64,000 bases of DNA from Alphaproteobacteria bacterium (GCA_017511715.1 JAFWJF010000007.1:6421-70420), one strand, 5' to 3'. Counted from the first letter of the stretch, positions 11,659 to 52,729 are shown. The notes: a model not told the origin generated them from the sequence alone. A program made the numbers and translations.

Positions 11659-12354
11659 TTGAATTATCCAAATGATTTTGATATAAAATCATTTCCTGCG
11701 GGCAAGACAATCGCACTTTCCCGCAGTGTTTCGATATGGATTTCAATTGTTTTCTTTTTAATTGTTGCCGCATGCGGTTTTATCTTATTTGGCATACACT
11801 ATAAACAAAATTATCCGTTTTTAATATCTGTTGATCCGTTTACGAACGATTGGAATGTTGTGACGTATCCTGGCAAGAACAAAAAGGAAACACTGCAACA
11901 ATACCAAATTGTCCAGGAAAAACTAGTTCGCGATTTTGTGACAAATTGGTTTACAATCACAGGCAATTCACAACAAGACGAACAGCGTTGGCAATCATGT
12001 GATGCCGAAGGTTGTATGGCAAGTGAACAATTTAATCCAGACAATATAAAATGTGCATTGTCTTGCAAATCTGCCCCGGCTGTGTTTGATGAATTTTACA
12101 AAAACGTATTGCCAGATTATCGTTCTTATGCTGGCGCGTCGGGCAAATGGTCTGTTGAACGCATGCTTATCACACCAAATAATGTGAATCAAAAATCTGG
12201 CACTTGGCAGGTTGTGGTATCAATTCAACCTGCTATGTCTGCGCCTTTTGATGCGTTGGTGTTTATTACGATTGAACAAGACCAAAACAAATATCCTGCA
12301 ACTTTGGGGTATTATATAACAACCTTTAATTCGTACAGAATAATAAATGAATAA
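11659..12354 (+). CDS. VirB8-like bitopic membrane protein (NTF2-like periplasmic domain)
   Basis: TTG start with AGGGGG RBS; single N-terminal TM helix; periplasmic part aligns by eye with VirB8 (KQNYPF-ISVD..., ends ...GYYITTFNSYRI like ...GFQVMSYRV). Confidence 0.45.
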   Translation: MNYPNDFDIKSFPAGKTIALSRSVSIWISIVFFLIVAACGFILFGIHYKQNYPFLISVDPFTNDWNVVTYPGKNKKETLQQYQIVQEKLVRDFVTNWFTITGNSQQDEQRWQSCDAEGCMASEQFNPDNIKCALSCKSAPAVFDEFYKNVLPDYRSYAGASGKWSVERMLITPNNVNQKSGTWQVVVSIQPAMSAPFDALVFITIEQDQNKYPATLGYYITTFNSYRIINE

Positions 12355-13012
12355 GATAAAGTCATTTTTTGCAGGTTTGTTTTTATTGATAATAACTTTT
12401 ATTATCATTGTTCTTTGCGCCCTGCTTTATCGTGCTAACGAACGTTCTTCGATAAAATCTTATATTTTTCAAATGAACAATTTTGCGAATCAGCGTGTTG
12501 GCGAATTGCAAGATATAAATGATATTTCTGCCGAAGATTTGCGTAATAAACTGATAAAAAAATATGTATCTGAATATTTCAAGGTGATACCGGGCGAACA
12601 AAATGCTGAAAATCGTTCTGTGTTAGATGCCCTGTCTACCGATGCTGCGTATAAACAATGGCAAAAAGGCGAAGCAAAAACAATCGCCGAAATGTCCCGC
12701 AAGAATATGTTTCGTATTGTCCATGTTTATGACGATGGAATTGCAACATTAAACAGACCTGCCGATTATAATTATACTGATGAAATTGAAAAAAATATTT
12801 ATTATTCCGTTCGTTATTATACAGAAACATGGACGGAAACGAATAAAATGGCAACAGAACCCGTCAAAGAACAAGGGGTTATTTACATTGAAGCCCGATT
12901 CCGACCAGGGATAAGAAAAGATATAGATGTTCAAAAACATTTACAAAAGGGTGAAAATCCAGTAGAATTGTTTAGATTCGAAGTAACAAATATAGGAAAT
13001 AAAGAATCATGA
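12347..13012 (+). CDS. Second bitopic membrane protein, VirB8/NTF2-like paralog (tentative)
   Basis: N-terminal TM, similar size/architecture to upstream gene; overlapping start. Confidence 0.35.
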   Translation: MNKIKSFFAGLFLLIITFIIIVLCALLYRANERSSIKSYIFQMNNFANQRVGELQDINDISAEDLRNKLIKKYVSEYFKVIPGEQNAENRSVLDALSTDAAYKQWQKGEAKTIAEMSRKNMFRIVHVYDDGIATLNRPADYNYTDEIEKNIYYSVRYYTETWTETNKMATEPVKEQGVIYIEARFRPGIRKDIDVQKHLQKGENPVELFRFEVTNIGNKES

Positions 13013-13800
13013 TGATGAAAAAAATCTGCTTTTTGATGTCTTTGTGTTGTTTGACAATTATGTCAAATGCGGTATTGGCAGATGATTACGATGATTTATC
13101 GTTTGATTCTTTCGCAATTGTTGATGATGTTGATTCTGATATGACGATGGAACAGGTTTCGCTTAATTCAGGCGCGGCGGTTGTAAATGTTAAACAATTT
13201 GATGTTGCCGGCGTAATGTTAGGAATGAATTATGACCAAGTAAACGATTTATTCTTTAACGGTTCTGGACTTTATGCACCCAGTCAAAAAAATAGTGTCG
13301 TTTATACTATAAACAAAGAATGGAAATATAACCTTGATTATGAATGCAGACAAAACAACATCTTTGTTCCCGAACAATTGGAAAAATGCATAAATTCTTT
13401 GGCGCGCAACCGCGGACTTTTGTATGTATCGGAAGTGCACGTTGAACGTACTTTTACTGGCGAAACAGTTGATGTCTATTTTACCAGCAATGCCACAGAT
13501 AATCTTGTATGGAAAGTTGTATATAATAATGATGTGAACAAAATGGATGGCGAAAGTGAAAAATTTGCGAATCAACGTGAAAAAAAGATTCTGGCATTCT
13601 GGCAGGGTGTGATTGATAAATACGGCGTTCCAAATTCTGATGAAGACAAATGGATTTCTTCGGAAAACGCGTATGACCCAATGATGCAGGCTTTTTATGG
13701 TCAATTGGTTTTACAAGATAAAGGATTGGAAGCGACTGATTCTTCGGAAAACATCCACAAGGCACGCGAAAATTTCCAGGCAAAACCTTATGCTTTTTAA
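13009..13800 (+). CDS. Secreted hypothetical protein (263 aa)
   Basis: Signal peptide, no recognisable domain; translationally coupled to upstream genes. Confidence 0.45.
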   Translation: MMMKKICFLMSLCCLTIMSNAVLADDYDDLSFDSFAIVDDVDSDMTMEQVSLNSGAAVVNVKQFDVAGVMLGMNYDQVNDLFFNGSGLYAPSQKNSVVYTINKEWKYNLDYECRQNNIFVPEQLEKCINSLARNRGLLYVSEVHVERTFTGETVDVYFTSNATDNLVWKVVYNNDVNKMDGESEKFANQREKKILAFWQGVIDKYGVPNSDEDKWISSENAYDPMMQAFYGQLVLQDKGLEATDSSENIHKARENFQAKPYAF

Positions 13801-14143
13801 TAAAACATCTTATACGGTCGGTTTATATTCTGAATTCTTGGCACGTATGTATTTGCGTTTTCACGGATACAAAATATTGAAAAGCAGATATATTACCGGA
13901 AAAAATACTAATCGTGCCGAAATAGATATTATTGCCAGGCACAAAGACACAATTGTTTTTGTTGAAGTCAAAGCACGGAAAAACACTTCTGCGGCGTGGG
14001 ACGCAATAACACCGAAACAGTCGTTGCGCCTGCGTCGTGCCGCAGAAACATACTTAATAAAAAAACAATGGACAGGAAATGCCCGCTTTGATGTGATTAT
14101 TGTTTGCGGGCATAAAATATATTGGTCCAAGAACGCTATTTAA
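13790..14143 (+). CDS. yraN: YraN family (UPF0102) predicted endonuclease
   Basis: Start overlaps previous gene by 11 nt; motif EIDIIARHKDTIVFVEVKARK typical of UPF0102. Confidence 0.75.
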   Translation: MLFNKTSYTVGLYSEFLARMYLRFHGYKILKSRYITGKNTNRAEIDIIARHKDTIVFVEVKARKNTSAAWDAITPKQSLRLRRAAETYLIKKQWTGNARFDVIIVCGHKIYWSKNAI

Positions 14144-14418
14144 TTTTTTATAACCGCACTTTTAATTAAAGTGACATCTTCTTTGATTCCATCTATTTTC
14201 AATTGCAATTGCCCAATACCAGATTCCAATATTGTTGTGCGATTTTCCAGGGCTATTATTCGTTGATCCTGTCTGTCGATTTCTGAAACATAAGAATCTT
14301 GCCGGGCAACCCAATATATTATTCCTGCGATAAAAGCAATTAAAAACCAACTTTCGCGCAGGGTATCTATAAAACTAAAAATATTTTGTTGTTTGGTCAT
14401 GATAAAAGATAATTTCAC
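14140..14418 (-). CDS. Small membrane/coiled-coil protein, last gene of virion-like cluster
   Basis: 92 aa with one TM helix then coiled coil. Confidence 0.35.
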   Translation of the reverse strand: MKLSFIMTKQQNIFSFIDTLRESWFLIAFIAGIIYWVARQDSYVSEIDRQDQRIIALENRTTILESGIGQLQLKIDGIKEDVTLIKSAVIKN

Positions 14419-14425
14419 ATAAAAT

Positions 14426-14635
14426 TTATGTTATATTATTCCCCCGTTTTATAAGATTTTCTATTTGATGGACCAGCGCATTTTGCGCCGCCCACCAACG
14501 CAATTCGTCATTTGAAGCGTTTTGCCCCATAATACGTTCTCTTGTTATTGCGCGCAAATGATTCAAGACTTGTTTTCCTGATGCAGTGTTGAAAACACGT
14601 GCATAATGTTTTTCTATATCATTCATTTTACGCAC
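14426..14635 (-). CDS. Small hypothetical protein (69 aa) in virion-like cluster
   Basis: ORF only; tightly packed after portal gene. Confidence 0.3.
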   Translation of the reverse strand: MRKMNDIEKHYARVFNTASGKQVLNHLRAITRERIMGQNASNDELRWWAAQNALVHQIENLIKRGNNIT

Positions 14636-14638
14636 CCT

Positions 14639-15862
14639 TTATATAGACATTTCTTCGCGTGCCATTTGTGCGATTGGTGCAATGTATTTTAATTCTGCAT
14701 CGCTGTGCAAAGATATCGGTTCGATTAAACCACGTCTTGATAATATCTGAAGCCCTCTTTCACAAAGCGGTTTAATAAATTCTTGTAACAAGCGTCCGTA
14801 TGTCGCACCTAAAATACGCACCATATCGGAATTGCGCGCCAATATTTCTGTGGCGGTCATTTCTTTATCTGAAAGAAGCCCTAACCTGTCTGCCAAAAGG
14901 GTGTGACGTATTCTGTCGCGCAAATCGCGTAAAACTATTTGTGAAACATCAAAATTAGAACCACTGGTTAATGGGGTTAAACCCGAACTGCCGACAGCCT
15001 TTGGAATTATTGCCCCTGGGGTCAAATTGATATTAGACAAATTGATAACCCCATCGTCATCAGCCTGCCATATACCACTTACCGCAATTGTCGCGTTTTT
15101 AAGGACCAATTCAACAACTTTGTTTGCAGTTTTAATGTCTGGCAATGCGCGCAATACCGGACTGCGCCCGTATAATTCACCACTTACCAGCGACCAACGG
15201 AATATAATATAAGGATTGGTTTCAAAAGTTCCGCGTGCAACGATATTATTTTCAATATCACCACCAACATCAACCCACGCGGTAAAATCTTTACCTATTA
15301 ACGATTGAACTAATCTGATTGGGGTTTCTGGGTTTGCTTTTATTGTATCACGCAAATTCGCAGGGAATACAAATTGCGGATATTTTTCCATCAAATCACT
15401 TGCCGGCAAAGAAGTCGTATGAAATACCATGCCCGGCAATATCGCAATGTCTTTCATTGGTATCGCAGTAAACGAAAACGCAGAATCTGAACCAATTGGG
15501 TTTTCCGCCATAAATAAACATGCAGTACCAAGGACAACCAAATCAATATAACACTGATGCACGGTTGTATAAAAATTAGAATCGTTCAAATGGGCGCGCA
15601 ACACAGCTGTTGCTACATCTGCATCTGGGGATAAATCACTTTCGCGAACAAGGTTTATCCACAAAGATTCTGGTGGAGTTAAAAGTGAATACATTGATGC
15701 CGCCAGATTATCCACTGCATCTGCCGCAGTTGCATCAAATAACGTTGCTGATTCTGTGTCGTCTGTTGGGACAGTATAACGCAACGCATTTTTCCAACGT
15801 GGCAACCATTGTTCCCTTTCATCAAGAGCGCGTTTATATAATTGCATAAGATTTTTTTGCAT
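14639..15862 (-). CDS. Phage portal (head-to-tail connector)-like protein
   Basis: 407 aa immediately downstream of terminase nuclease half. Recalled (not searched) resemblance to podovirus connector proteins, including a YGRS motif. Confidence 0.55.
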   Translation of the reverse strand: MQKNLMQLYKRALDEREQWLPRWKNALRYTVPTDDTESATLFDATAADAVDNLAASMYSLLTPPESLWINLVRESDLSPDADVATAVLRAHLNDSNFYTTVHQCYIDLVVLGTACLFMAENPIGSDSAFSFTAIPMKDIAILPGMVFHTTSLPASDLMEKYPQFVFPANLRDTIKANPETPIRLVQSLIGKDFTAWVDVGGDIENNIVARGTFETNPYIIFRWSLVSGELYGRSPVLRALPDIKTANKVVELVLKNATIAVSGIWQADDDGVINLSNINLTPGAIIPKAVGSSGLTPLTSGSNFDVSQIVLRDLRDRIRHTLLADRLGLLSDKEMTATEILARNSDMVRILGATYGRLLQEFIKPLCERGLQILSRRGLIEPISLHSDAELKYIAPIAQMAREEMSI

Positions 15863-15882
15863 TTGTTTTTCCTTTTGTTTTG

Positions 15883-16731
15883 TTATATTTGGAAGTCTGT
15901 ATTTGCACGAATCTGATTTAGAGTCCTGCCCTGTGGTCTTGCAGGAACAGGTGTCATAGAAACAGCACCTGCCAATGCATCCAAACCATCATCGTGTTCT
16001 TTGGAACCCATTGGTGTAAACGCCAACATTTCTGCCAACAGCATCGTTTGCTTTATTCTTTCGTGCATATAAAGATGACCTGTTGAAAGCAAAGGTTCCA
16101 AAGCGTTCAAAATTCTTGTTTCTTTTTTTATATGATTAGAAATTTGTATAATATTTATATTTCTTTGGTGTTTGCGCGCAATATCTCGCATAATTTCTGG
16201 CAACGCATTACCAATGCCATTTGTTTCAATACCTATTCTGAATAAATTGTGTTTCTGCATAAAATCAAGAACACTAATACATTGGTTTGTCAAAGGATGC
16301 ATATCTTCATCTTCAACCCCCATGTATATTATATCGTGCACAAAAACGTTTCTGTTTTTATCATCACGATAAACCAACACACAGACACTGCCATCATGAT
16401 TTTGGCGTCCTGTTGATGGGTCCCAATAACACGCCATACCTGTAATATTATTTTCACCGATTCGCGATGAAAACAAATCAAAATCATCAGAATAAAAATG
16501 AACCGCCCCAGGATCCAGTTGAACGCGTTCTTGGGCGACATATTCCAACATCATTTGTGCAGAAAAATGTCGCTGTCCAACAATATCTGCCAATTCATGT
16601 ATTTTTTCAATTGGAAACATTTCTGGCCATGCTGGGTTTCCCGCAGCGTCAATAATAGGTATTTTCAATTGCTTATACCCCTGTAAAAAAGGTATTGAAT
16701 TCTGAAAATTTTCGTTTAATCTAATAGACAT
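15883..16731 (-). CDS. Terminase large subunit, C-terminal nuclease half
   Basis: 282 aa with RNase-H-like terminase nuclease motifs (YWDPSTG, IETNG, HDDGLDALAGA). No ATPase motifs. Its ATG overlaps the dnaB ATG in a CATG tetranucleotide. Confidence 0.7.
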   Translation of the reverse strand: MSIRLNENFQNSIPFLQGYKQLKIPIIDAAGNPAWPEMFPIEKIHELADIVGQRHFSAQMMLEYVAQERVQLDPGAVHFYSDDFDLFSSRIGENNITGMACYWDPSTGRQNHDGSVCVLVYRDDKNRNVFVHDIIYMGVEDEDMHPLTNQCISVLDFMQKHNLFRIGIETNGIGNALPEIMRDIARKHQRNINIIQISNHIKKETRILNALEPLLSTGHLYMHERIKQTMLLAEMLAFTPMGSKEHDDGLDALAGAVSMTPVPARPQGRTLNQIRANTDFQI

Positions 16732-18280
16732 GGACTTTACTCCGAAAACTTTACCTACTAACCTAGAAGCCGAACAGGCCGTTTTGGCTGCGGTATTGAT
16801 GAATAACCGCGCACTGGAATCAGTATCTGATTTTTTGTTGCCGGAACATTTTTCGCATCCTGCACACCAAGAAATTTACAGACTGGCAATGCGTCAATTT
16901 GCCGTTGGAATTCCATTTGATATAATTACCGCCAAAACATACCTTGAACAGCAAGGCACTCTTGAAACCGTCGGTGGCGTTGAATATTTATCAAAATTGG
17001 CTTCTGCTGGCTCTACCGTGGTAAATGTTGAACATTACGGACACATTGTTTTTGATAATGCCCGCCGTCGTGATTTAATTCAGTTGGGACAAAGCATTAT
17101 TGATGATGCTTATACCGAAGATTTAGACAAAACAGTAAATGCACAGATAGAATCTGCGGAACAAAAACTGTTTAATCTTGCATCCACTGGACAAAGTGAA
17201 CACAACGTTGTATCTTTGGCGGACGCATTGAAAAGCGCATTACAAGAAGCCGAAATCGCATATAAAGCAGATGGAAAGTTATCTGGTCTTACAACCGGGT
17301 TGGACGATTTAGACAAATCAATAAGTGGCTTACATCATTCTGATTTAATCATTATTGCTGGTCGTCCTGGTATGGGAAAAACGACATTGGCAATGAACAT
17401 CGCATTTAATGCTGCAAACGCTATATTGAACGAACGCGCGAACGCACAATATAAAGGCGCGGTCGCATTTTTTAGTCTTGAAATGTCTTTTGCGCAATTG
17501 GCAACACGTGTGTTGTCTTCTCAATCAAAAATACCAGCGACACGCATGCGTGAGGGTAATTTGACAGATGAAGACTTTATGAAAATGTCACAATACAGTG
17601 AAGCACTGTCAAAAGTTCCTGTGGTCATTGATGACACGGCAAACATGTCTGTTGCGGCAATAAAAACACGTGCCCGCAGAATTGCCCGTAAATATGGCAA
17701 TATCGCATTGATTGTTATTGACTATTTACAGCTGATGACTTCACCTGGTGGCAAACACAACGACAATCGTGTTCAAGAATTATCAGAAATCACGCGTGGC
17801 TTGAAAATTTTAGCCAAGGAATTAGATGTTCCTGTTATCGCATTGTCTCAGTTATCACGAAGTGTCGAACAACGTGATGACAAACGCCCTGTATTATCAG
17901 ATTTGCGTGAATCTGGTTCTATTGAACAAGATGCGGATATTGTTATGTTTACATACCGCGAAGAATATTACCTTGAAGGACGTTCACCTGATAAAAAATT
18001 ATCCGGGACCGCATCTGAAACGTCCATGCAAAATTGGCAAAAACGCTTAGATAATGTTCGCAACAAAGCAGATGTTATCATCGCCAAGAACCGCCATGGT
18101 AAACCAGAAACTGTTCATTTAAGCTTTACCGGCGAATATTACCTGTTTGATAACCTTAATCAATTTGGTCCACAGCCAACACATGATTCTGAATTTGGAA
18201 ACCAATTCACAACAGCCACATCCGACACAAATATACCAAATGTTGCAGACATTAATGATATTCCTGACGATATGATTTAA
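16730..18280 (+). CDS. dnaB: Replicative DNA helicase DnaB
   Basis: 516 aa; N-terminal LEAEQAVLAAVL motif, Walker A GRPGMGKTT, RecA-like core, ~40 aa C-terminal extension. Confidence 0.92.
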   Translation: MDFTPKTLPTNLEAEQAVLAAVLMNNRALESVSDFLLPEHFSHPAHQEIYRLAMRQFAVGIPFDIITAKTYLEQQGTLETVGGVEYLSKLASAGSTVVNVEHYGHIVFDNARRRDLIQLGQSIIDDAYTEDLDKTVNAQIESAEQKLFNLASTGQSEHNVVSLADALKSALQEAEIAYKADGKLSGLTTGLDDLDKSISGLHHSDLIIIAGRPGMGKTTLAMNIAFNAANAILNERANAQYKGAVAFFSLEMSFAQLATRVLSSQSKIPATRMREGNLTDEDFMKMSQYSEALSKVPVVIDDTANMSVAAIKTRARRIARKYGNIALIVIDYLQLMTSPGGKHNDNRVQELSEITRGLKILAKELDVPVIALSQLSRSVEQRDDKRPVLSDLRESGSIEQDADIVMFTYREEYYLEGRSPDKKLSGTASETSMQNWQKRLDNVRNKADVIIAKNRHGKPETVHLSFTGEYYLFDNLNQFGPQPTHDSEFGNQFTTATSDTNIPNVADINDIPDDMI

Positions 18281-18305
18281 TTTTTACTTGCCAAAGTTTA
18301 GAAAA

Positions 18306-18340
18306 TTGACTAACATTTTGTCAACATATGTATATTCAGG
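18306..18340 (+). promoter_or_regulatory. Promoter with palindromic operator-like site (TTGAC-N9-GTCAA) upstream of XRE repressor gene
   Basis: -35 ttgact, -10 tatatt, RBS caggag. -35 lies inside inverted repeat ttgactaacattttgtcaa. Confidence 0.4.
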
Positions 18341-18348
18341 AGTCCACC

Positions 18349-19356
18349 ATGGCACAAGAAGAAATCATTTTTCCAAATAATATCCGTAACATTCGTGCAA
18401 GCAAAGGTATGAAAATGACAGAATTGGCACGCCGTGCAAATTTGTCATTGTCTGCTGTATCAAAGATTGAAAAAGGCGTTCGCCGTCTTAATCAAAAGCA
18501 GTTGTTAAATGTATGCACTATCTTGGGCTGTAAATTGTCGGATATATTTATTCACGAATCTGATTCTGTTGCACAAAATTGGCAAAACGAAATCAAACGT
18601 CGTTTAACAGACAACGAAGATAGCGGCTTGAAAATATTTGGTTCTGGTCTTCGCAAAATTCGCCAACGCACCGAAAAGACTATCGCCCAGGCCGCACACG
18701 ATGCAAAAATGACATTATCTGTGTATCATAAAATCGAAGTCGGTCAACGCGAAGTTTATGAAAACGAAATCGAAGTTTTGGCCCAGGCTTTTGGGTATAA
18801 AGCCTCTGAATTATTTGACGAAATCGCAAAACTTTACAAGGCTGGTGAATTAACAAAACAGATTAACAAAGTCAAAGAACGTGTCAAATCTGTTTTAGAG
18901 CCTGTAAATCCTATTTCTGGTCTTGACATTCATGGCGGTCTTTACGGCGCACAATTATATGATAATGCCCGCAAAAAATTAGTTCCTGTATTTGGCAAGC
19001 CTTCTGGTAAATCTATCAAATTGAAAAAATCTGATGAAACAATGATTGTGGCACCAACTACATTGGAAGGACACACTGGAATATATGCAGTTGTACCTAA
19101 TTCCAAAAGGTTAGGAGGTTTTGTTCCTGAATCTTCATATATTTTTGTAGACTCTAATTCAACACCAAAAGTTGGTGATTTGGCGGTCTGCATAAATGAA
19201 GATTTTGATAAATTGCCACTTGATGGTACGGCCGATGCCCAGGTTGTGGTTGTTCGTCAAGACAGCCATGGAAAAATGTTTGGTCACATATCTAACCCAG
19301 AAGAAAAGATTTCTGGTAAAACTTTTCACAAGGTTGTTATGATAGTGATGCAATAA
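18349..19356 (+). CDS. Tandem XRE-family HTH repressor with C-terminal S24/LexA-like (apparently non-catalytic) domain
   Basis: Two HTH_3-like segments (MTELARRANLSLSAVSKIEKG; TIAQAAHDAKMTLSVYHKIEVG). C-terminal beta-rich domain resembles S24 peptidase fold but lacks the GDSM serine motif. Confidence 0.65.
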   Translation: MAQEEIIFPNNIRNIRASKGMKMTELARRANLSLSAVSKIEKGVRRLNQKQLLNVCTILGCKLSDIFIHESDSVAQNWQNEIKRRLTDNEDSGLKIFGSGLRKIRQRTEKTIAQAAHDAKMTLSVYHKIEVGQREVYENEIEVLAQAFGYKASELFDEIAKLYKAGELTKQINKVKERVKSVLEPVNPISGLDIHGGLYGAQLYDNARKKLVPVFGKPSGKSIKLKKSDETMIVAPTTLEGHTGIYAVVPNSKRLGGFVPESSYIFVDSNSTPKVGDLAVCINEDFDKLPLDGTADAQVVVVRQDSHGKMFGHISNPEEKISGKTFHKVVMIVMQ

Positions 19357-19388
19357 GGCACTATCTCAAAACACAGGGGAGAGAGAAA

Positions 19389-20030
19389 ATGCAACAGCAA
19401 GCACACACAATCGCGCAACGTTTATTAAACCTTTACCGCCAGGCACATGTTATCGAAGGTGGCTGGGCAGCAGTTAATAAAGTTTTTATTGCAGAATCTA
19501 ATGATGCCCAAGTTATCACGGAACTGGAAAACCTGCCGACCGGCAAACGATTGGTTGCACACATTAATAACCTGCGCAGTGGTAAAACCCCTATGGATTC
19601 CATAGACAAAGATTTGCTGCCATATGGTGGTTTGATGTCTGGGGCGACAGGAAACGTTTCTTTAACCAAAGAAGAAATAAAACAGTTAAAACAAGCGCTA
19701 GATTCTTTTCAACCAACCACAGAAAGTCTGGATGTTATCAAAAACTTACCTTTCGTCAAAAAATTTGGTAACGATTGGGTTGATGACATAAGGTCTGCGA
19801 TTGCGTTTGATAATGATATGCTTACAAAATGGCGCACTGTTGCCCAAACAGACAAGGCATACAAAATCTGGAACAGCGCAAAAGAATTATTATCAGAAAC
19901 ATTGACAGAACGCAATCGTGCCCAAATTCAAGCAGACATGCTGGAATATGAAACTTATTTACCAATGTTTGGCGATGCAGGCAAAGAAGTTTTATCTAAA
20001 CTTCGTACATTTATGTCTTCGCTGTCATAG
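19389..20030 (+). CDS. Hypothetical protein (213 aa) in dnaB-repressor cassette
   Basis: RBS gggagag; no recognisable motifs. Confidence 0.35.
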   Translation: MQQQAHTIAQRLLNLYRQAHVIEGGWAAVNKVFIAESNDAQVITELENLPTGKRLVAHINNLRSGKTPMDSIDKDLLPYGGLMSGATGNVSLTKEEIKQLKQALDSFQPTTESLDVIKNLPFVKKFGNDWVDDIRSAIAFDNDMLTKWRTVAQTDKAYKIWNSAKELLSETLTERNRAQIQADMLEYETYLPMFGDAGKEVLSKLRTFMSSLS

Positions 20031-20031
20031 G

Positions 20032-20667
20032 CTATTCAATTTTGTATATTGTGTCTTGCGTGTGTGGGGTTCCTATGAAAATCATAGTTCCATTTGGCGA
20101 CAATATAAAATCTAGTTCGCGCAGTCTTTCCCGCAGGTTTATTCGTTTTTGCTGTGTATTGCAGGTATTCGGCACTTCTACGTCATCACATATAATCAAA
20201 TCAGAACGCATACCTGTTATATTGCCAGAAATTCCCTGACAAATAACGGATGGTTCTCTGATTCCGATTGGACGATTGATGGTTATTTTATGCGATCCCC
20301 ACTCTTTTTTTACATCCGGCACAATACCTTCACACCACGGGTGATTTTCAATGATATTTTTTATATGCGCCACCATGCGCGATGCCAACCCAGATTCCGC
20401 AGATAATATTAAAATTCTGGTTTCTGGTTTATGATACAATACACACGCAGCAAACACACCAACAACTGTTGATTTCCCAGAATGCCGAAACGCATTTAAC
20501 AGACCGCGATGTGGCGAATTGTTAAACACATCGACCAAAAAACTGAGTATTTGCCGGTGATGTTTTGGCGTTTGCAAACCCAAGACTTTATTCCATGCAT
20601 CTAAGAAATTAAATGCTTCCGTAATCGTCATTGTTTTCGCCATCTGCGTCTTCTGCCACAGAACCAT
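20032..20667 (-). CDS. Terminase large subunit, N-terminal ATPase half
   Basis: 211 aa with Walker A (RHSGKST), Walker B (LIICDDVE) and coupling motif (IFIGTP); ends with a stop, no nuclease domain. Confidence 0.7.
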   Translation of the reverse strand: MVLWQKTQMAKTMTITEAFNFLDAWNKVLGLQTPKHHRQILSFLVDVFNNSPHRGLLNAFRHSGKSTVVGVFAACVLYHKPETRILILSAESGLASRMVAHIKNIIENHPWCEGIVPDVKKEWGSHKITINRPIGIREPSVICQGISGNITGMRSDLIICDDVEVPNTCNTQQKRINLRERLRELDFILSPNGTMIFIGTPHTQDTIYKIE

Positions 20668-21145
20668 AATCGTTTATCATATCTTGTAATACAGACACCA
20701 AATTGTAATACAACCCCAGCACTGCACCGCCCGACATTTTATCTTCTATGGTTGATATTGCATAATCAATTTTTGTCAAAAGATTATCATGGACATTTGC
20801 CCACTGTGCCAAATCGACATCTATGCTGCGAATATCCTGCAGGGCGGCCAATAAAAAATTGAAATCAGTATTCAAATCTTCTGGATCTATTTTAGCAGTT
20901 GTCTGGTAATCAATAACACGGGATAAATCTACTTGACGAAAGATATCTATATTCTTGTTATTTTCTGGTGCGCTGGCAAAAACAACTATGCCCCCACCAA
21001 AATCGTCGTTTGGATTCACTGCGTATTGAGTAGTGTCTAAAACAGTATTATCAATACTAACCTTGACATCAGATTCTTGAAAGAACGGGAAAGAAAATGA
21101 AAATTCTGAGGTTTCTCCATCCCCAACATAAGAGATTTTATACAT
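20609..21145 (-). CDS. Tail fiber-like protein (conserved fiber N-terminal motif)
   Basis: N-terminus YVGDGETSEFSFSFPFFQESDVKV resembles the conserved N-terminal anchor motif of many phage tail fiber proteins. Confidence 0.4.
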   Translation of the reverse strand: MYKISYVGDGETSEFSFSFPFFQESDVKVSIDNTVLDTTQYAVNPNDDFGGGIVVFASAPENNKNIDIFRQVDLSRVIDYQTTAKIDPEDLNTDFNFLLAALQDIRSIDVDLAQWANVHDNLLTKIDYAISTIEDKMSGGAVLGLYYNLVSVLQDMINDYGSVAEDADGENNDDYGSI

Positions 21146-21154
21146 TTTATCCCC

Positions 21155-21502
21155 CTATCCTGCTATTTTATCAACATTTGCCAACCAAGTTTGTAATATG
21201 TTTGGTTTTTTTACTTTCAGTTTATTTATTTTATCCATATTATCTTTTCGTTTTGTATCGTATGGTTGTGCCGTTTCATCACGCAAACGCTTTAATACGG
21301 CGTTTTCAGACAAACCGTTCCCACTGTTTCCTGACGCACCATATTTAGCACGTTGTGATGCTAATGCTTTTTTTATTAAATTTGTTTTATTGGCTTCATC
21401 TTGAGCCATTTGTGCCAATATTTTTTGGCGTTGATTTTCTGCTTCTTTTTTAGAGTCTTTATAATCTAAAACCTTGGTTACATCTGATACTAATTGTCCC
21501 AT
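21155..21502 (-). CDS. Hypothetical virion-associated protein (115 aa)
   Basis: ORF in structural module; Lys-rich, no motif. Confidence 0.3.
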   Translation of the reverse strand: MGQLVSDVTKVLDYKDSKKEAENQRQKILAQMAQDEANKTNLIKKALASQRAKYGASGNSGNGLSENAVLKRLRDETAQPYDTKRKDNMDKINKLKVKKPNILQTWLANVDKIAG

Positions 21503-21517
21503 AAATTACCTCCTTTG

Positions 21518-23230
21518 TTAAATTAAATACCAACCGTCAACAGTGACAGATAATATTGTTGCGCCTAATTGTTCATCGCTGGACACTGTCCAAAGGGGTT
21601 CCATTGTGTTAATTTGAGACCCCAACAAATTCATTGACAAATCACCGTCATACCCCAAAGCATTTGCTTCATAAACGGAATTAGGGATTTCAACACGATA
21701 ATTGTTTATAAACACTGTTTTTGTGTCTTTTACACGCAAAGAAACCTTACGCGCACGAATCTTTTTAGGATTATGCCCATTAACAATCATTGGCAAGGCC
21801 GATATTTTGTATGTAAATTTATACGTTTGAGCATCAATTAAATGCTCTGTGTCAAATTTTTCCAGATAATATTTATTATCTCGTTTTACAATCACATAAG
21901 TATTGTTATCAAAAACGGCGACATATTTGAAAGCACCATCTGTTATATATTTTCCCCATGCTCTAATATCTGTATTTGGGTGCTTATTAAGAACGGCCAT
22001 ATATCCATCAGACATAACTATAAACAACTGATGCGTCAACTGATTAAAGGCGATACTAATCGGATTTCGCATCAAATGTTTTGCCCAAGAGCATAAATCA
22101 TTTGCATTGTATTTTTGACTTAAATCATCCAAGTCTAATTCGCGCACATCTTTGCCTGATTGAGATACAAATACTGTTGCGCCTTCTATTTGTTGCGGCG
22201 GCAAATAAATATTTGTGATACTGCCGACAGAAGTATGTTGTTTAATATTAACATTTGATGGGGTTAACGGAGAATTAGAAATCGCCCATTCGCCCACAGA
22301 AGTCAATATTTGCAAATTATCACTGCTGACTATTGTTGATATTTGATGGTGTTGAGATGATAAAAGCGTCATAAAAATCGCATCATCATCCAGTCCTTCG
22401 CCACTGTCAAAGTTATCATAATCACCAACCTTAGACATCCATATATTGTTTGGCGCAGACTTTGTTCCGCCGAACACCAGCCTGTTTTGATGGAAAGATA
22501 CAGCGCGTGGCCATCCGCGTTTATTACTGAATGCACCGACATACCAATCGCTAATCGCATGTCCGGGACACGTAAATGTACCATTTGTATAAACTATCGC
22601 TACACGCGCACTTTGGACAGATTCGACCAACCATTGTTTCCCATTTATTAGCAATCTTTCCCAAAGCCAATCATTTGCCCAAATATCTTTATCCGCAGTA
22701 AACACAGCATGATTGTTATCAATATCACTGTTCGTGATTGTAATCGACACACCATTCATATCGTCAAACCGCATGAAAGGAACGTTTACAGTCACATCTG
22801 TATTGATATGAAACACGAATTCTTCAATATGAAAACCGCTTGCTTCTTTTGTAAGAATTTGTGGCTTAAAATCTGGATGAACAAAAAAGATTTTATTAAA
22901 TCTTTGTGCGTATTGCAGTTGTTTCAAATCTAAATCAGCCCAATCTGCCGACAAAGATTCTATTTTTTCATCGTTTTCATAGATATCTATGATACGACCA
23001 TAAATAACTAACAAATATTTTTCACTTTCGCTTATTTTGAATGGCACTATTATCGCATCATCTGGTATTTCGTCTATTTGCTTTAAGCCTGGTCTGCGTT
23101 TCAGAGCACCAGATTGTAAAACGTCCATATTTTCAAGACACGTAAGTCCATTATTGTTATTTATCGCGTAAAATTCTGGCGACACTTCACCAAAGGAAAA
23201 AATATTTTGTGTTTTAAGAAAATTTCCCAT
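21518..23230 (-). CDS. Putative tail (tubular/nozzle-like) protein, 570 aa
   Basis: Largest structural ORF, sits where podovirus tail tube B would be; assignment by position and size only. Confidence 0.35.
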   Translation of the reverse strand: MGNFLKTQNIFSFGEVSPEFYAINNNNGLTCLENMDVLQSGALKRRPGLKQIDEIPDDAIIVPFKISESEKYLLVIYGRIIDIYENDEKIESLSADWADLDLKQLQYAQRFNKIFFVHPDFKPQILTKEASGFHIEEFVFHINTDVTVNVPFMRFDDMNGVSITITNSDIDNNHAVFTADKDIWANDWLWERLLINGKQWLVESVQSARVAIVYTNGTFTCPGHAISDWYVGAFSNKRGWPRAVSFHQNRLVFGGTKSAPNNIWMSKVGDYDNFDSGEGLDDDAIFMTLLSSQHHQISTIVSSDNLQILTSVGEWAISNSPLTPSNVNIKQHTSVGSITNIYLPPQQIEGATVFVSQSGKDVRELDLDDLSQKYNANDLCSWAKHLMRNPISIAFNQLTHQLFIVMSDGYMAVLNKHPNTDIRAWGKYITDGAFKYVAVFDNNTYVIVKRDNKYYLEKFDTEHLIDAQTYKFTYKISALPMIVNGHNPKKIRARKVSLRVKDTKTVFINNYRVEIPNSVYEANALGYDGDLSMNLLGSQINTMEPLWTVSSDEQLGATILSVTVDGWYLI

Positions 23231-23248
23231 ATAAAAACTCCCTTGGTT

Positions 23249-23776
23249 CTAGAATCTAGAATCTATCAAAGAAAAACTTTCAATATTTGATTGATTTGAT
23301 GTTGTGCTGTCTATAAATTTGGCAGATTGATATTCAGATTCATATAATGCGCTCATCATTCTGAAAACATTTGCATCCCCAATCAGTGGTATACAAAATT
23401 CCATTGCTAATTTCGTAGCCAACAATGTAGCAAAATATCCAGGAAACATTTCTGGTTCCGTTTTTACTACCGCTGTTATCTTTAATGTATTTTCTGCTGC
23501 TTTTATTCTGTTGCCGATAATTTGACCATTACATTTCAAGATTCTTAAAACTTCTGTTGGAATCAGAAAATCATCGTCTTGTGTTTTATTTAACACTAAT
23601 TCTTTGGTTGCAAACCGCCATGGGAACAAAGACAACAAAGTATCCAAAGTCGGATCAAACAAAGTTCGTGCTAATTGTGCGGCGGCACTGTCTTCACGCC
23701 ATGATTGGATTGGTTTTTCACCAAGTTTTAACAATGCCATCGAACATAAATCTATTTTTGTAAACATAATTCGCAC
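23249..23776 (-). CDS. Putative tail tubular A/adaptor-like protein, 175 aa
   Basis: Position between capsid-like and large tail-like genes. Confidence 0.3.
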   Translation of the reverse strand: MRIMFTKIDLCSMALLKLGEKPIQSWREDSAAAQLARTLFDPTLDTLLSLFPWRFATKELVLNKTQDDDFLIPTEVLRILKCNGQIIGNRIKAAENTLKITAVVKTEPEMFPGYFATLLATKLAMEFCIPLIGDANVFRMMSALYESEYQSAKFIDSTTSNQSNIESFSLIDSRF

Positions 23777-23824
23777 CTATTTATTGAAAAAAATCAGGGG
23801 ACAAATGTCCCCTGATTATGATTA

Positions 23825-24055
23825 TTAAGATAATGCACCAACCGTCACAACACCTTCTGCAACAGTGATAACTTTTATCGCAGAACCATTAGAACCATTG
23901 ATTAAAATGATGTCTCCTGTGTTCATAAGATTTTTCAAGCTGGAAAAATATCCAGATGCGGTTATCGTTGCCAATGTCGCGTTTTCTTTATAATGCCACA
24001 AAGTAAAACCATTTGCATATGCAATCACAGACAAATTTTTATTCTGAAAAGCCAT
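23825..24055 (-). CDS. Small hypothetical structural protein (76 aa)
   Basis: ORF directly downstream of capsid-like gene. Confidence 0.3.
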   Translation of the reverse strand: MAFQNKNLSVIAYANGFTLWHYKENATLATITASGYFSSLKNLMNTGDIILINGSNGSAIKVITVAEGVVTVGALS

Positions 24056-24077
24056 CGTTCTTCCTTTTAGTTATAAA

Positions 24078-24902
24078 TTATTGGGCATCATCATCACATT
24101 TGATACGGACGATACCTTCGTTATCAATTAAAACTGCACCTTGGGACATGCTGTTGCTGATAAAGTGCGCCGCACGTTCACCATGCCATGTGATATCTGT
24201 TTTAACTTCTTGACCGCAGGCATGACCAATACTAGATGCATGGTACATAAAGCAATCACGATCATCGTCACTGATTGGTAATGAATTGCACAGAATCCAA
24301 TTCACACCCAACCATTTACGCGATTCGCAACCATCAACCAATGGTGTGGCATTTCCGACATAGTCAGCAGAAACAAATTCATCCAACGCCAACAATTCAT
24401 TCCATTGATGAACACCAACAATGGCAAATCTGCGACCATCATCAGGAACATCATTGGCATTAAGTTTTTCTAATGCTTCCATTATCAAAGCTTTTGTTAA
24501 ACCAGTTGAATAATCACCAACATATTGTGTTGCACTGTTCATAGCATTGATAATCAATTCATCTGTTTTGCGCCCCAACGCATATGCACCAGCAGACGCA
24601 ACAACACGACGTTCATCGACATTGGTTTTCAATTCATCCAACGAATCAACCCAATCACCTGCATAATAATCTTGCAAAACGCATTCAACAGGTGTGTGAT
24701 TCAGATTCATCACAGGAACAATCCCATGACGTGATTTTGTGCTGGCAATACCTTTGCCAACTTTTTGGAAAGTAGTAGATGCACCAACAACCCCGGTTTT
24801 ACTGCGGATTGTAGAGCGCAATTTTGTGCCCATTTGCTGATAAGCCAAATGAACATCTGCTTCAAATTGTTTTACAAACACTTGATCTACAGACATAGAC
24901 AT
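24078..24902 (-). CDS. Putative major capsid protein (274 aa)
   Basis: Position after scaffold-like gene, size compatible with small HK97-fold coat protein; no search performed. Confidence 0.4.
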   Translation of the reverse strand: MSMSVDQVFVKQFEADVHLAYQQMGTKLRSTIRSKTGVVGASTTFQKVGKGIASTKSRHGIVPVMNLNHTPVECVLQDYYAGDWVDSLDELKTNVDERRVVASAGAYALGRKTDELIINAMNSATQYVGDYSTGLTKALIMEALEKLNANDVPDDGRRFAIVGVHQWNELLALDEFVSADYVGNATPLVDGCESRKWLGVNWILCNSLPISDDDRDCFMYHASSIGHACGQEVKTDITWHGERAAHFISNSMSQGAVLIDNEGIVRIKCDDDAQ

Positions 24903-25145
24903 AAGTAATCCTTTTTGTTAAATCGAAACACGCCATGATGGCGTAATTTATAAAAATTTTGTTTTATGGTTATGCGATAATTCGCGCCACAAACACAAAA
25001 CAACACAAAAAAGGGTCCAAAAGAAATTGGATTATCCAATAAAAAATTCAGTCTGACTTTAACATCGGACTGAAAAATTTATCATCAAAAAAGTCCCCAA
25101 AACCAAGCGTTTTAGGGACTTTTATTAAAAGATTTTTTTACAATC

Positions 25146-25466
25146 TTATTTTTTCTTAACTACTTTTTTAGCAGCTGGTTTTTTTGCAGCAACTTTTTTT
25201 GCAGCTGGTTTTTTTGCAACTGCTTTTTTAGCAACTGGTTTTTTTGCAGCTGGTTTTTTTGCAACTACTTTTTTAGCAGCTGGTTTTTTTGCAACTACTT
25301 TTTTAGCAACTGGTTTTTTTGCAACTACTTTTTTAGCAGCTGGTTTTTTAACAGCAACTTTTTTTGCAGCTGGTTTTTTTGCAGCAACTTTTTTAGCAGG
25401 TGCTTTTTTTGCAGCTGGTTTAGCAGCTGGTTTTGCGCATGCGCATTTTTTCTTTAAGCCAAACAT
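25146..25466 (-). CDS. Histone H1-like Lys/Ala-rich DNA-binding protein (tandem AAKKPAAKKVV repeats)
   Basis: 106 aa, ~10 tandem KKPAAKKV(V/A) repeats encoded by 30-nt DNA tandem repeats; N-terminal KKKCACAK. Confidence 0.6.
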   Translation of the reverse strand: MFGLKKKCACAKPAAKPAAKKAPAKKVAAKKPAAKKVAVKKPAAKKVVAKKPVAKKVVAKKPAAKKVVAKKPAAKKPVAKKAVAKKPAAKKVAAKKPAAKKVVKKK

Positions 25467-25563
25467 AATTCTCTCCTTCTATAAGTTTTGGACAGAACAA
25501 AATTATTTTGTTCTTAAACATATTTTATATGATTCAAAACAAATAGTAAAGAATAAAAATTAT

Positions 25564-26220
25564 TTATGAGTATAATTTTCTGAAACCATTTTCAATTTTT
25601 CTTATGTATTCAGGATCTTGGTCGCGCCAATATTTTGGATCACGCATCATGTTGCGCAACATGTCATCGGACAAATTTTCTGTTGCGTTTTTATCGGTCA
25701 AAACACTTGGTTCAAAAGATTGCATCATCTTATAAACGCCTTGTATTCCCTGGGGTGTAGCGCACAGTTCTTCAAATGCATCAGCAGGCAAATACTTTTC
25801 ACCAAATGCTTTTATTTCACGCAACGCATCGTTCATTTTTTCTGATGATCCAAAAAAATTTTTCAATTCATTTATTGCATTTGATTGATTTTGTAATGCA
25901 AATAAATTTTTTAATGTTGGTTGTAAAAATTCTTCTGCTATCGAATAAATTTTTTCAACTTGTTGTGATGTAAGACCAATTTCATGAAATTTTTCACGAA
26001 CCGATTCGTCATCAAATAAATCATTTACAGGATAATCAGACGCGTTATCTGGCACACCAATTGCATGATTAAATTTTTGTTTTGTGTCTGTATCACTGTC
26101 ATCTTTTGGAATCGAAATCATATTGCCCATCTTTTTTTCAAGTTCGCAATAAGACTTAACCAACGCAGAAGTATTTAATTCGCCGTTTTCATCAAGAAAC
26201 TTTTCAGGTATTTGTTCCAT
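25564..26220 (-). CDS. Scaffolding-like acidic helical protein (218 aa)
   Basis: Acidic, helix-rich, directly upstream of H1-like and capsid-like genes. Confidence 0.35.
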   Translation of the reverse strand: MEQIPEKFLDENGELNTSALVKSYCELEKKMGNMISIPKDDSDTDTKQKFNHAIGVPDNASDYPVNDLFDDESVREKFHEIGLTSQQVEKIYSIAEEFLQPTLKNLFALQNQSNAINELKNFFGSSEKMNDALREIKAFGEKYLPADAFEELCATPQGIQGVYKMMQSFEPSVLTDKNATENLSDDMLRNMMRDPKYWRDQDPEYIRKIENGFRKLYS

Positions 26221-26411
26221 TATTTTTTCCCTTTGATTGCTGATTCTTGTTTAAGGAAATATATTCCGCCCAACGTAAATATTGTTTGCATCATTGTAAA
26301 AATATCTTCGTCACCGATTAAATAAGCACCTATTGCAGATATTATACCGACACTTGATACGACATAAGTTTTTTTGTCTTTCAAATATCCACCTTTGATT
26401 ATTTTATTCAT
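26220..26411 (-). CDS. Holin-like small membrane protein (63 aa)
   Basis: One or two TM helices, charged C-terminus, directly downstream of endolysin. Confidence 0.4.
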   Translation of the reverse strand: MNKIIKGGYLKDKKTYVVSSVGIISAIGAYLIGDEDIFTMMQTIFTLGGIYFLKQESAIKGKK

Positions 26412-26428
26412 TGTTTGTCCTTTTTTAT

Positions 26429-26839
26429 TTACAAATAAAACAAAATATCTTCACATTCTGATATGTATCCGCGCGCCATTGCCCAATCTGGAATAATATT
26501 TGTGTGATGAAATTTTGTTGCGCCGAAAACAGAATCAGGCAAATTTCCACGCATCATTGTTTTTACCGTGCGCAAACACAATTGAAATTTTCTGTCATTT
26601 GCATCTATGTTCAATTTTTCATTACGTTCTGATTTTGTGTTCAGACATTCAAACAAATCAGAATCTTTTGATATTGCATCAAAAGTTTTTCCGTACTTAA
26701 TATGAACATTGTTTATCATGGATGTCATCGCTTCTATAAGTGGCAGCGATTTAGCTTCTGTTTCTGCGAACACAATGCGCGCCAATTTATATGATACGAT
26801 TTGTGCATCATCATTGTTTTTTATCAAAGTTAATTGCAT
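26429..26839 (-). CDS. Cell wall hydrolase SleB-type (Hydrolase_2) endolysin
   Basis: Starts MQLTLIKNNDD at 26839; motifs ARIVFAETEAKSL ... ATKFHHTNIIPDWA typical of SleB-family amidase used as endolysin. The table ORF extends upstream across terminator hairpins using a TTG, so the 26839 start is preferred. Confidence 0.7.
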   Translation of the reverse strand: MQLTLIKNNDDAQIVSYKLARIVFAETEAKSLPLIEAMTSMINNVHIKYGKTFDAISKDSDLFECLNTKSERNEKLNIDANDRKFQLCLRTVKTMMRGNLPDSVFGATKFHHTNIIPDWAMARGYISECEDILFYL

Positions 26840-26861
26840 ATTTTTGCCCCGGTTTTTAGTT

Positions 26862-26928
26862 AAAAAAAGCCCGTGCAAAAAAATGCACAGGCAAAAATAA
26901 AGAATAAAAAAAACCGCAAACACTGCGG
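26862..26928 (-). terminator. Two tandem intrinsic terminators in the leader of the virion/lysis operon
   Basis: Minus-strand hairpins ccgcagtgtttgcgg+U8 (26906-26928) and gcctgtgca-ttttttt-gcacgggc+U7 (26862-26892), between promoter and endolysin start. Confidence 0.6.
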
Positions 26929-26939
26929 ACATAATTTCT

Positions 26940-26985
26940 ATTCTTGATGCTTTATATAATATCACAAATTGACACAAAAGTCAAG
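26940..26985 (-). promoter_or_regulatory. Strong sigma70-like promoter for virion/lysis operon (also birA terminator region)
   Basis: Minus strand TTGACT-17 nt-TATTAT; -35 lies in palindrome TTGAC-N6-GTCAA. Confidence 0.55.
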
Positions 26986-50726: not shown

Positions 50727-50784
50727 TTTGTTTCCTTTTTTTATTTTTAATATTAAAAACCGAGATTGTATAACCTCGAAATAA

Positions 50785-50812
50785 ATGGTACAAAAACCAA
50801 GGTTTTTTAACC
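50785..50812. promoter_or_regulatory. hix-like recombination site (left): ggtacAAAAACC-AA-GGTTTTTTaacc
   Basis: Core AAAACCAAGGTTTTT identical to Salmonella hixL core (TTCTTGAAAACCAAGGTTTTTGATAA); coordinates approximate (+/-3). Confidence 0.6.
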
Positions 50813-50892
50813 GCCACTTCAACGACATCTAACAAAACGCGCTTTTTCACTGTTTTCTGGGAAAAAATTACTAAATAAAAATTTATAAAAAC

Positions 50893-50920
50893 TGGTTGAC
50901 TTTTAACCTTGGTTTTTTTT
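50893..50920. promoter_or_regulatory. hix-like recombination site (right, inverted): tgacTTTTAACC-TT-GGTTTTTTTTag
   Basis: Same half-sites with central TT instead of AA, i.e. inverted orientation. Together with the left site it brackets a ~110 bp segment between adhesin gene and invertase gene. Confidence 0.6.
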
Positions 50921-51011
50921 AGACCTCTTGACATATTGAAAAAAAGAACTAAATATCCTGATGTAAACAGGCTTTTGCCTGTTTTTTTATTTGATAAAAA
51001 AAGGAGAATTT

Positions 51012-52728: not shown

Positions 52729-52729
52729 T

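Follow-up and report, generated by a model that had tools for sequence, protein, structure and literature searches.

A large terminase gene in two parts, with dnaB between them, in a T7-like chromosomal locus of the Candidatus Enterousia clade

In a stretch of 64,000 nucleotides from an alphaproteobacterial genome (Alphaproteobacteria bacterium, GCA_017511715.1 JAFWJF010000007.1:6421-70420; the whole stretch is called the window below), the large terminase (TerL) of a phage-derived locus is encoded by two open reading frames (ORFs) on the minus strand, termed here TerL-N and TerL-C. Between these two consecutive parts of one TerL lie, on the plus strand, dnaB, the gene of a regulator with two helix-turn-helix (HTH) domains and a gene for a 213-aa protein, an arrangement that is far beyond chance. 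The reading that we favour, at a probability of about 0.7, is that this is an anciently fixed mini T7 head-tail locus resembling a gene transfer agent (GTA), in which TerL works as two polypeptides and the host dnaB with its promoter is interleaved.

Two consecutive parts of one large terminase

TerL-N (20032..20667, minus strand, 211 aa) is identified by Pfam, PHROG and alignment as the ATPase core of a T7-type large terminase, and carries the Walker A motif GKS, the Walker B and catalytic motif DDVE and the motif III GTPHT, before ending in TIYKIE and the stop codon. TerL-C (15883..16731, minus strand, 282 aa) starts with about 70 residues of the ATPase part, with the motifs PFLxGY, IPIID, WPE and RHFSAQMMLEY, and continues as an RNase-H-like nuclease with the motifs WDP, ETNG and HDDGLD. 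A first-pass annotation of the window had given both ORFs these coordinates and had taken them for the two parts of one TerL, and on both counts it was right. The same PHROG profile, 38 'terminase large subunit', is matched by TerL-N at positions 276-458 (E 2.5e-41) and directly after this span by TerL-C at positions 468-713 (E 4e-39); since the positions are successive, the ORFs are consecutive parts of one family, and neither unrelated paralogues nor a chance pairing. The Pfam models found are Terminase_6N on TerL-N, and Terminase-T7_RNaseH-like (PF22530) together with Terminase_6C (PF17289) on TerL-C. TerL-N can be aligned with residues 28-210 of T7 gp19 and residues 31-211 of the TerL of PhiV-1, while a search of PDB sequences with TerL-C gave no match.

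The two halves were joined end to end and aligned with 8 unsplit relatives (481-510 aa) and 3 phage TerLs (~557 aa), in an alignment here called A2. The joined halves are collinear throughout with the unsplit proteins and no segment is missing, so that the supposition that no residues had been lost at the junction holds. Invariant in this alignment are K65 of the GKS motif, D161, D162 and E164 of DDVE and the GTP of motif III (199-201), as well as the acidic residues of the nuclease, D315, E380, D458, D459 and D462. The break, at which TerL-N ends in ...GTPHTQDTIYKIE and a stop codon and TerL-C begins with MSIRLNENFQNSIPFLQGY..., falls in a short variable loop, where the larger phage TerLs have an insertion of 35-60 aa. 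Essentially no sequence has been added at the broken end of either half, and in particular no segments of about 100 aa or 35 aa that would be the size of inteins, which rules out split inteins.

The split was traced through relatives by fetching loci via DnaB in GTDB genomes, via TerL-C in metagenomes, via TerL-N in IMG/VR and by exact look-up, and mapping 25 proteins of the window onto them. Both junctions have the standard form in 53 of the fetched loci, one junction is seen before the contig ends in 21 more, and 5 loci are non-standard. In more than 70 loci, therefore, there is no single polypeptide with ATPase and nuclease; there are two ORFs 3.3 kb apart, one with a stop codon of its own and the other with a Shine-Dalgarno (SD) sequence and ATG of its own. 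Protein lengths agree with this. The best 120 of 815 homologues of TerL-N are 198-212 aa long, that is half-sized, and the best 120 of 660 homologues of TerL-C are 245-283 aa long except for one entry with an assembly duplication. Where homologues of either half have source names, these are Alphaproteobacteria metagenome-assembled genomes (MAGs) and Candidatus Enterousia.

The first-pass annotation had put the split exactly between the ATPase and nuclease domains, and this needs correction, as TerL-C carries some 70 conserved residues that belong to the ATPase. TerL-N spans only positions 6-115 of the 215 of the Terminase_6N model. In the unsplit relative P0127, where the equivalent of the break would be at about residues 211-215, the model reaches position 153 at residue 218 and at least 62 further model positions lie beyond the break. 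In T7 and in unsplit relatives the nuclease models of Pfam begin 100-150 residues past the position of the break, and in TerL-C itself the nuclease starts at about residue 72-100, judged from Pfam and from an AlphaFold2 (AF2) model. Across 28 orthologues, conservation in TerL-C is especially high at residues 1-70, with P14, F15, L16, G18, Y19, I24, P25, W35, P36, R54, H55, F56, S57, Q59, M60, M61 and L62 invariant. In the AF2 model of TerL-C alone, residues 72-270 form a confident RNase-H-like domain, for which Foldseek gave the TerL of PhiV-1 and other terminase nucleases as the best PDB matches and also a resemblance to RuvC and poxvirus resolvases. Residues 1-70 have a predicted local distance difference test score below 50, which is weak evidence, since the alignment given to AF2 was shallow (28 sequences, at least 61% identity). 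Sequence and model together place the break within the ATPase, immediately C-terminal to motif III and about 70 residues ahead of the nuclease, and not at a domain border. It would part the nucleotide-binding core from the last portion of the ATPase, so that the two chains would have to complement each other.

Both halves of TerL are under purifying selection, as are bamA and dnaB. Pairwise Nei-Gojobori estimates of the ratio of non-synonymous to synonymous divergence (dN/dS), with the window as reference, were 0.04-0.07 for TerL-N and 0.08-0.18 for TerL-C, alongside 0.04-0.06 for the portal protein, 0.09 for the capsid protein, 0.03-0.06 for BamA and 0.03-0.08 for DnaB; even the closest relatives have a dS of about 1 or more. 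TerL-C is 67-72% identical to its counterparts in relatives, compared with 80-86% for TerL-N, and the divergence of the two is correlated (rho 0.8). Of the two outcomes envisaged in the first-pass annotation, that of a gene inactivated yet retained is refuted by these ratios and by frames that are intact in most relatives examined, while that of a two-polypeptide terminase fits both the selection on the halves and the SD and ATG that TerL-C has to itself.

The genes between the halves and their junctions

The three plus-strand genes fill the 3.3-kb interval with almost no non-coding sequence. The first, dnaB (16730..18280), encodes a replicative DNA helicase with both domains (Pfam DnaB and DnaB_C). 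The protein scores 620 bits against the NF006606/PRK09165 equivalog (cutoff 540), which it passes, and 416 bits against the phage_DnaB model (cutoff 498.65), which it fails. In a neighbour-joining tree the DnaB of the clade groups with Alphaproteobacteria, and the nearest DnaBs outside the clade are those of other Alphaproteobacteria, at 42-51% identity and in non-phage contexts. The best match in phage collections, at no more than 50% identity, was in MT835812.1, an unannotated 17-kb 'Bacteriophage sp.' entry from human faeces, and was dropped since the ORF pattern is that of a bacterial chromosome fragment and there is no TerL context. These comparisons indicate a DnaB of the alphaproteobacterial chromosomal type and not one belonging to a mobile cassette. 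Because the genomes are smaller than 1 Mb, this dnaB is very probably their sole replicative helicase gene.

The second gene (18328..19356, plus strand) encodes a 342-aa regulator with two XRE-type domains (HTH_3/HTH_31 in Pfam) and a conserved C-terminal domain. It had been described as an XRE/S24-like repressor, of which the XRE part stands, twice over, and the S24 part is not confirmed: Pfam Peptidase_S24 was not detected, a profile of the C-terminal domain had no match among PDB sequences, and the candidate serine of a Ser-Lys catalytic dyad, in the motif PNSKR, varies between A, T and S among orthologues, although the fold itself was not modelled. A LexA/CI-type repressor combining HTH and S24 domains was accordingly set aside. 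The third gene (19389..20030, plus strand) encodes the 213-aa protein, which is predicted to be all-helical and has no family match; a structure search was uninformative. Of 1260 homologues found, the best 120 all measure 212-214 aa, and the few with source names are from Alphaproteobacteria MAGs.

At both ends of the interval the genes meet with the precision to the nucleotide that had first been noticed. At junction A (16686..16753) the divergent start codons of TerL-C and dnaB share the CATG at 16729-16732, and in relatives this overlap or a spacer of at most about 30 nt is kept. The 45 nt upstream of dnaB, which on the opposite strand are codons 1-15 of TerL-C, are nearly invariant, with the consensus AAAAAAGGtaTTGAAtt.t.AAAATTTTcgTTTAaTcTA...gACATG. 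The entropy at third codon positions is 0.38 for codons 1-10 and 0.62 for codons 11-20 of TerL-C, 0.68 for codons 1-10 of dnaB and about 1.1 elsewhere, which shows that synonymous sites at this junction are under constraint. No SD sequence precedes the ATG of dnaB, and a promoter-like pair, TTGAAT and TAATCT separated by 16 nt, ends 7 nt before it. From its sequence and position this pair is probably a promoter for dnaB within TerL-C, giving a leaderless or near-leaderless mRNA, and a dnaB message of this kind would explain the exactness of the CATG. A GGAG SD sequence for TerL-C is at 16740-16743, 8 nt upstream of its ATG and inside codons 4-5 of dnaB. As relatives keep both this signal with its ATG and the stop codon of TerL-N, TerL-C is expected to be translated separately.

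At junction B (20028..20034) the convergent stop codons, TAG (20028-20030) of the 213-aa gene and CTA (20032-20034) of TerL-N, are 1 nt apart. The distance from stop to stop is between -17 and +6 nt in all relatives, often with a shared TTAA or CTAG, and stops that abut in this way leave no room for an intergenic terminator between the convergent units. No target-site duplication and no direct or inverted repeats were found at the borders of the interval beyond short matches at chance level, nor did mobile-element genes or repeats mark them. An Rfam scan of the window for introns and ribozymes gave only tRNAs. The view of the interval as an inserted mobile replication and repressor cassette is not supported, given the lack of repeats or target-site duplication, the chromosomal type of DnaB and the survival of the three genes in loci from which phage genes have been lost (see below). 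The event that placed dnaB inside TerL could not be reconstructed from these data.

A T7-like particle locus at a fixed chromosomal site

The split TerL belongs to a phage-derived locus of about 12.8 kb, at ~14140-26977, whose own genes are all on the minus strand. At one end are a 92-aa gene (p92) and a 69-aa Bbp19-like gene (14140..14635), followed by the portal gene (14639..15862; Head-tail_con, by Pfam and PHROG) and TerL-C. Beyond TerL-N, the start of which it overlaps by 59 nt, is an N-terminal tail-fibre stub (20609..21145, 178 aa). Among the genes of the cluster it alone is variable, some relatives having it and others lacking it (L104, L110, L113-L115, L117, L118, L123, L124, L129, L006, L007, L012). 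Next come a conserved 115-aa gene, p115 (21155..21502), with no assigned function and placed like the small proteins found 3' of the nozzle gene in relatives, and the genes of a gp12-like tail nozzle protein (21518..23230) and a gp11-like tail adaptor protein (23249..23776). After these are the 76-aa gene p76 (23825..24055) and the gene of the major capsid protein (24078..24902; Phage_capsid_2), which is small at 274 aa. A histone-H1/HC2-like DNA-binding protein (25146..25466, 106 aa, rich in Lys and Ala; PF07382, E 8.6e-18), a T7-type scaffold protein (25564..26220) and a 182-aa hydrolase-like protein (26429..26977) complete the cluster. The last of these, encoded by the first gene of the cluster and adjoining lipB, has weak similarity to phage cell-wall hydrolases and endolysins and is similar to the Hydrolase_2 gene of the unsplit cluster L089 described below.

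Several features of the cluster may be recorded here. A perfect hairpin with an 11-bp stem at 23792-23817, between the p76/capsid genes and the gp11-like gene, resembles a terminator on both strands, with a T-run on the minus strand, and occupies the position of the post-capsid terminator of T7. The H1/HC2-like gene is found between the scaffold and capsid genes, where L089 has no gene; judging from its composition and family, the protein could condense DNA for a small capsid. The only recombinase among the annotated ORFs of the window is a small serine recombinase/resolvase at 50991-51608, ~24 kb past the end of the cluster. It lies in a patch of low GC content (~50900-55300; 31-33% compared with ~40%) together with a GH108 phage-type endolysin gene (52730-53263) and small ORFs without assigned function. 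This patch is possibly an island, or else a lysis module of the particle locus that has come to lie apart from it.

The order of genes runs from frr-uppS-cdsA-rseP-bamA, three genes without assigned function and yraN, through p92, the Bbp19-like gene, portal and TerL-C, to dnaB, the HTH regulator and the 213-aa gene; it continues with TerL-N, the fibre stub where present, p115, the gp12-like and gp11-like genes, p76, capsid, scaffold and hydrolase, and ends at lipB. The flanks are identical in all relatives, and the locus occupies the same chromosomal site, from bamA and yraN to lipB, in genomes of 9 GTDB species and on about 60 contigs from metagenomes or IMG/VR. The three genes between bamA and yraN (11659-13800, plus strand; 231, 221 and 263 aa) have no Pfam match and are syntenic in the clade and fast-evolving, with 23-60% identity in relatives. 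In the main rumen group the portal and capsid proteins are 87-93% identical, against 81-85% for BamA, and the phage-like genes have diverged in step with host genes (rho 0.6-0.95). In IMG/VR about 25 pieces of the locus (L143-L167; 4.5-14 kb, dnaB included) are entered as viral genomes, under the heading of uncultivated virus genomes (UViGs). The practical warning is that viral catalogues count as viruses a domesticated chromosomal locus that bears host genes.

The clade belongs to the order Rs-D84, whose members have genomes between 0.75 and 1.0 Mb (PMC12306168). The host is uncultured. Samples of Candidatus Enterousia and Rs-D84 are mostly from animal guts and rumen. Elsewhere in the window are genes for a 1642-aa protein with LRR_5 and Listeria-Bacteroides repeats (56214-61142, minus strand) and for a 597-aa trimeric autotransporter adhesin with a YadA anchor (49035-50828, minus strand). 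Surface proteins of this size in a genome below 1 Mb perhaps serve attachment to other cells.

In a few relatives the locus has decayed. L010, L130 and L132, the latter two on contigs of 331-355 kb, have lost TerL-N, the portal and the tail genes; the capsid gene is also lost, with a short fragment left only in L010. TerL-C is intact in L010 and truncated in L130 and L132, and the scaffold gene remains. All three genes of the interval are kept, with dnaB alone inverted and the HTH and 213-aa genes in place. Other cases of decay are L009 and L131, the latter with a possible frameshift.

Unsplit versions of the gene do exist, as had been hoped for as a check. An exhaustive search with TerL-N recovered unsplit relatives (P0123-P0137) of 481-510 aa and 46-50% identity to TerL-N, and the closest of those found are in similar small T7-like clusters (L089, L141, L090, L138, L140), which in L089 and L141 measure 11-12 kb and are structural-only. 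Their gene set comprises TerL, portal, Bbp19-like, scaffold, capsid and gp11-/gp12-like proteins and a lysis enzyme, most completely in L089 and partially in the others; one unsplit relative has a GTA_holin_3TM gene beside TerL. Host genes bound L089 on both sides and L141 on one, the other contigs being short. These clusters differ from that of the window in having a single-chain TerL, a circularly permuted gene order, other chromosomal sites and other bacterial hosts. Since the closest unsplit TerLs found lie in clusters of a similar kind, the split is a derived state of one clade.

Searches of domains, profiles and repeats found no integrase, att repeats, DNA polymerase, primase or RNA polymerase at the cluster. 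Structural and packaging genes are thus present with no recognisable replication or integration module, under purifying selection and inherited with the chromosome, as in GTAs, and head-tail genes lacking an integrase, a replication module and a recognisable small terminase argue for a domesticated, GTA-like particle locus. From the comparison of genomes, the fixed flanks, the co-divergence and the selection together are the signature of such an element passed on with the chromosome; neither a dead gene nor a prophage that moves between sites would leave it.

Alternative readings and known systems

The course of events that we favour would be as follows. In an ancestor of the clade the TerL gene would have been broken at a variable surface loop just past motif III of the ATPase, and the intervening DNA would then have come to carry the cell's dnaB, the double-HTH regulator and the 213-aa gene on the opposite strand. 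TerL would now be made as TerL-N, holding the nucleotide-binding core, and TerL-C, holding some 70 ATPase residues and the nuclease, which would presumably reconstitute the packaging motor by non-covalent association. dnaB would be transcribed divergently from within the first ~15 codons of TerL-C. A number of points weigh against this reading. That the halves bind each other, that particles are made and that these package DNA as a GTA does are all steps that we infer from genes. Pfam and PHROG recognised no small terminase and no ejection proteins of the T7 gp14-16 type in the cluster, and the particle gene set may lack members or have some other use. A scan for promoters and terminators found no promoter for TerL-C and portal, with sigma-70 promoters no more numerous than in shuffled sequence, and these genes would need either a transcription start within dnaB or antisense read-through of the 3.3-kb interval. 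The pairwise dN/dS estimates are near saturation, the AF2 model has the shallow input described above, and another dnaB could still be present elsewhere in these genomes.

The antisense route might itself have a function. If late-operon transcription can reach TerL-C and portal only by crossing dnaB and the regulator gene, particle production would shut down expression of the helicase and the regulator and so act as a commitment switch, while the embedded essential gene and promoter would lock the locus into a sub-1-Mb genome. This extension is doubtful and is offered tentatively; were it true, it would describe the first natural two-chain terminase motor together with a T7-like gene transfer agent in Alphaproteobacteria.

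Other readings of the locus differ in how well they accommodate these observations. An active temperate mini-podophage, with the repressor, DnaB and the 213-aa protein as an early module inside its terminase gene and site-specific integration at yraN-lipB in many hosts, would account for the IMG/VR entries, for the likeness of an HTH gene and dnaB facing the late genes to a lysogeny and replication module, and for the unsplit relatives at different chromosomal sites in other bacteria. It is nevertheless improbable, given a cluster with no integrase, att-like repeats or polymerases and no primase, flanks that never vary, a divergence that tracks host genes, structural genes that evolve as slowly as bamA, and a DnaB of the chromosomal equivalog type that is kept when the structural genes decay. 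We consider it similarly improbable that the halves are sub-functionalised remnants, retained, for instance, as a host ATPase and a RuvC-like nuclease, or that the capsid set serves something other than DNA transfer. The resemblance of TerL-C to RuvC and poxvirus resolvases, its faster evolution than that of TerL-N and the lack of recognised small terminase and ejection proteins would suit such a fate. The ~70 ATPase residues, however, are among the most conserved of TerL-C and would be useless without TerL-N, the two halves diverge in a correlated way, and the portal, capsid, scaffold and tail genes are conserved together; in L010, L130 and L132 it is TerL-N, portal and the capsid and tail genes that are lost or truncated, while the scaffold and a truncated TerL-C remain.

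That the halves are rejoined into a single-chain TerL, through intron splicing, a split intein or the programmed removal of the interval, is suggested by the spliced UL15 gene of herpesviruses, which has the same layout (PMC3079670), and by the group I introns in TerL genes of Twort-like phages (PMC5618024). It is very unlikely here, as the window has no Rfam intron or ribozyme and the interval consists of three conserved opposite-strand genes with hardly any non-coding sequence; intein-sized segments and repeats at the junctions are missing, the stop of TerL-N and the SD and ATG of TerL-C are kept in relatives, and excision would delete dnaB. Least credible is a TerL killed by insertion, the ORFs of which persist solely owing to the recent origin of the locus or to hitch-hiking with an essential dnaB. 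The few decayed relatives (L009, L010, L130-L132, with the possible frameshift in L131) are what it would predict, but dN/dS of 0.04-0.18 at dS of at least 1 and open frames with invariant catalytic residues in most relatives examined speak against it, and hitch-hiking gives no protection from frameshifts or non-synonymous change.

If the two-chain TerL works, a packaging motor can be interrupted between motif III and the rest of the ATPase without loss of function, and the locus provides a natural split system for dissecting how ATPase and nuclease are coupled. About 1.4% of the DNA in some of the smallest genomes of free-living type is given over to a set of T7-like head and tail genes whose rate of evolution is as low as that of bamA, which points to an important and unrecognised use of virus-like particles, probably for gene transfer, in gut and rumen communities. 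Should gene transfer be confirmed, GTAs would extend beyond the known head-tail types. A replicative helicase gene and its promoter within a phage-derived gene is also an unusual entanglement of a core gene with a domesticated element.

A literature search on split or two-polypeptide terminases and on phage elements of Rs-D84 found no description of a two-chain terminase or of this locus. The broader impression that no terminase had been described as split by opposite-strand genes was mistaken, since the herpesvirus gene UL15 (HSV-1, VZV and DEV; CMV and BoHV-4 have homologues) consists of two exons that are spliced, the intron between them carrying UL16 and UL17 on the other strand (PMC3079670). 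UL15 is the nearest architectural precedent: a gene of the TerL family in two coding parts, with opposite-strand genes between them and a layout kept across a lineage. The exons of UL15 are joined by nuclear splicing, whereas the Enterousia halves have no splicing apparatus or intron signature, each have a start or stop of their own and would be expected to give two polypeptides; the intervening genes are virion genes in the one case and host replication and regulatory genes in the other. The break in UL15 is probably also at a different place in the ATPase. The TerL coding sequence of Twort-like and other phages is likewise interrupted, but there self-splicing of group I introns yields a single chain, and no Rfam intron was detected in the window.

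For the reassembly of an enzyme from pieces, the closest parallel is NrdA of phage Aeh1, which is split by mobE and whose two chains reassemble non-covalently into a functional enzyme (PMC3045599). There too the gene of an essential enzyme was fragmented by inserted DNA. The gene inserted in Aeh1 encodes a mobile homing endonuclease, lies on the same strand and created, on insertion, the new tails through which the chains assemble, while the Enterousia TerL has no endonuclease, 3.3 kb of opposite-strand cellular genes and essentially no added tails, and its reassembly is predicted.

With RcGTA-like elements, BaGTA, the Caulobacter GTA and FpGTA the locus shares a cluster of head, tail and terminase genes that is inherited with the chromosome under purifying selection and has no recognisable replication or integration module. 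[quoted passage not shown] The Enterousia locus differs from the classical GTAs in its T7-like character (Head-tail_con portal, gp11- and gp12-like proteins, T7-type scaffold and TerL) and in a two-piece TerL with a nested dnaB. The property that defines GTAs, the packaging of random host DNA in place of the element's own genome and its transfer to recipients, would be a prediction for this locus. The classical alphaproteobacterial GTAs are not known to be T7-like. The two-piece TerL locus would combine genes in pieces with a domesticated phage particle, and is not a new category.

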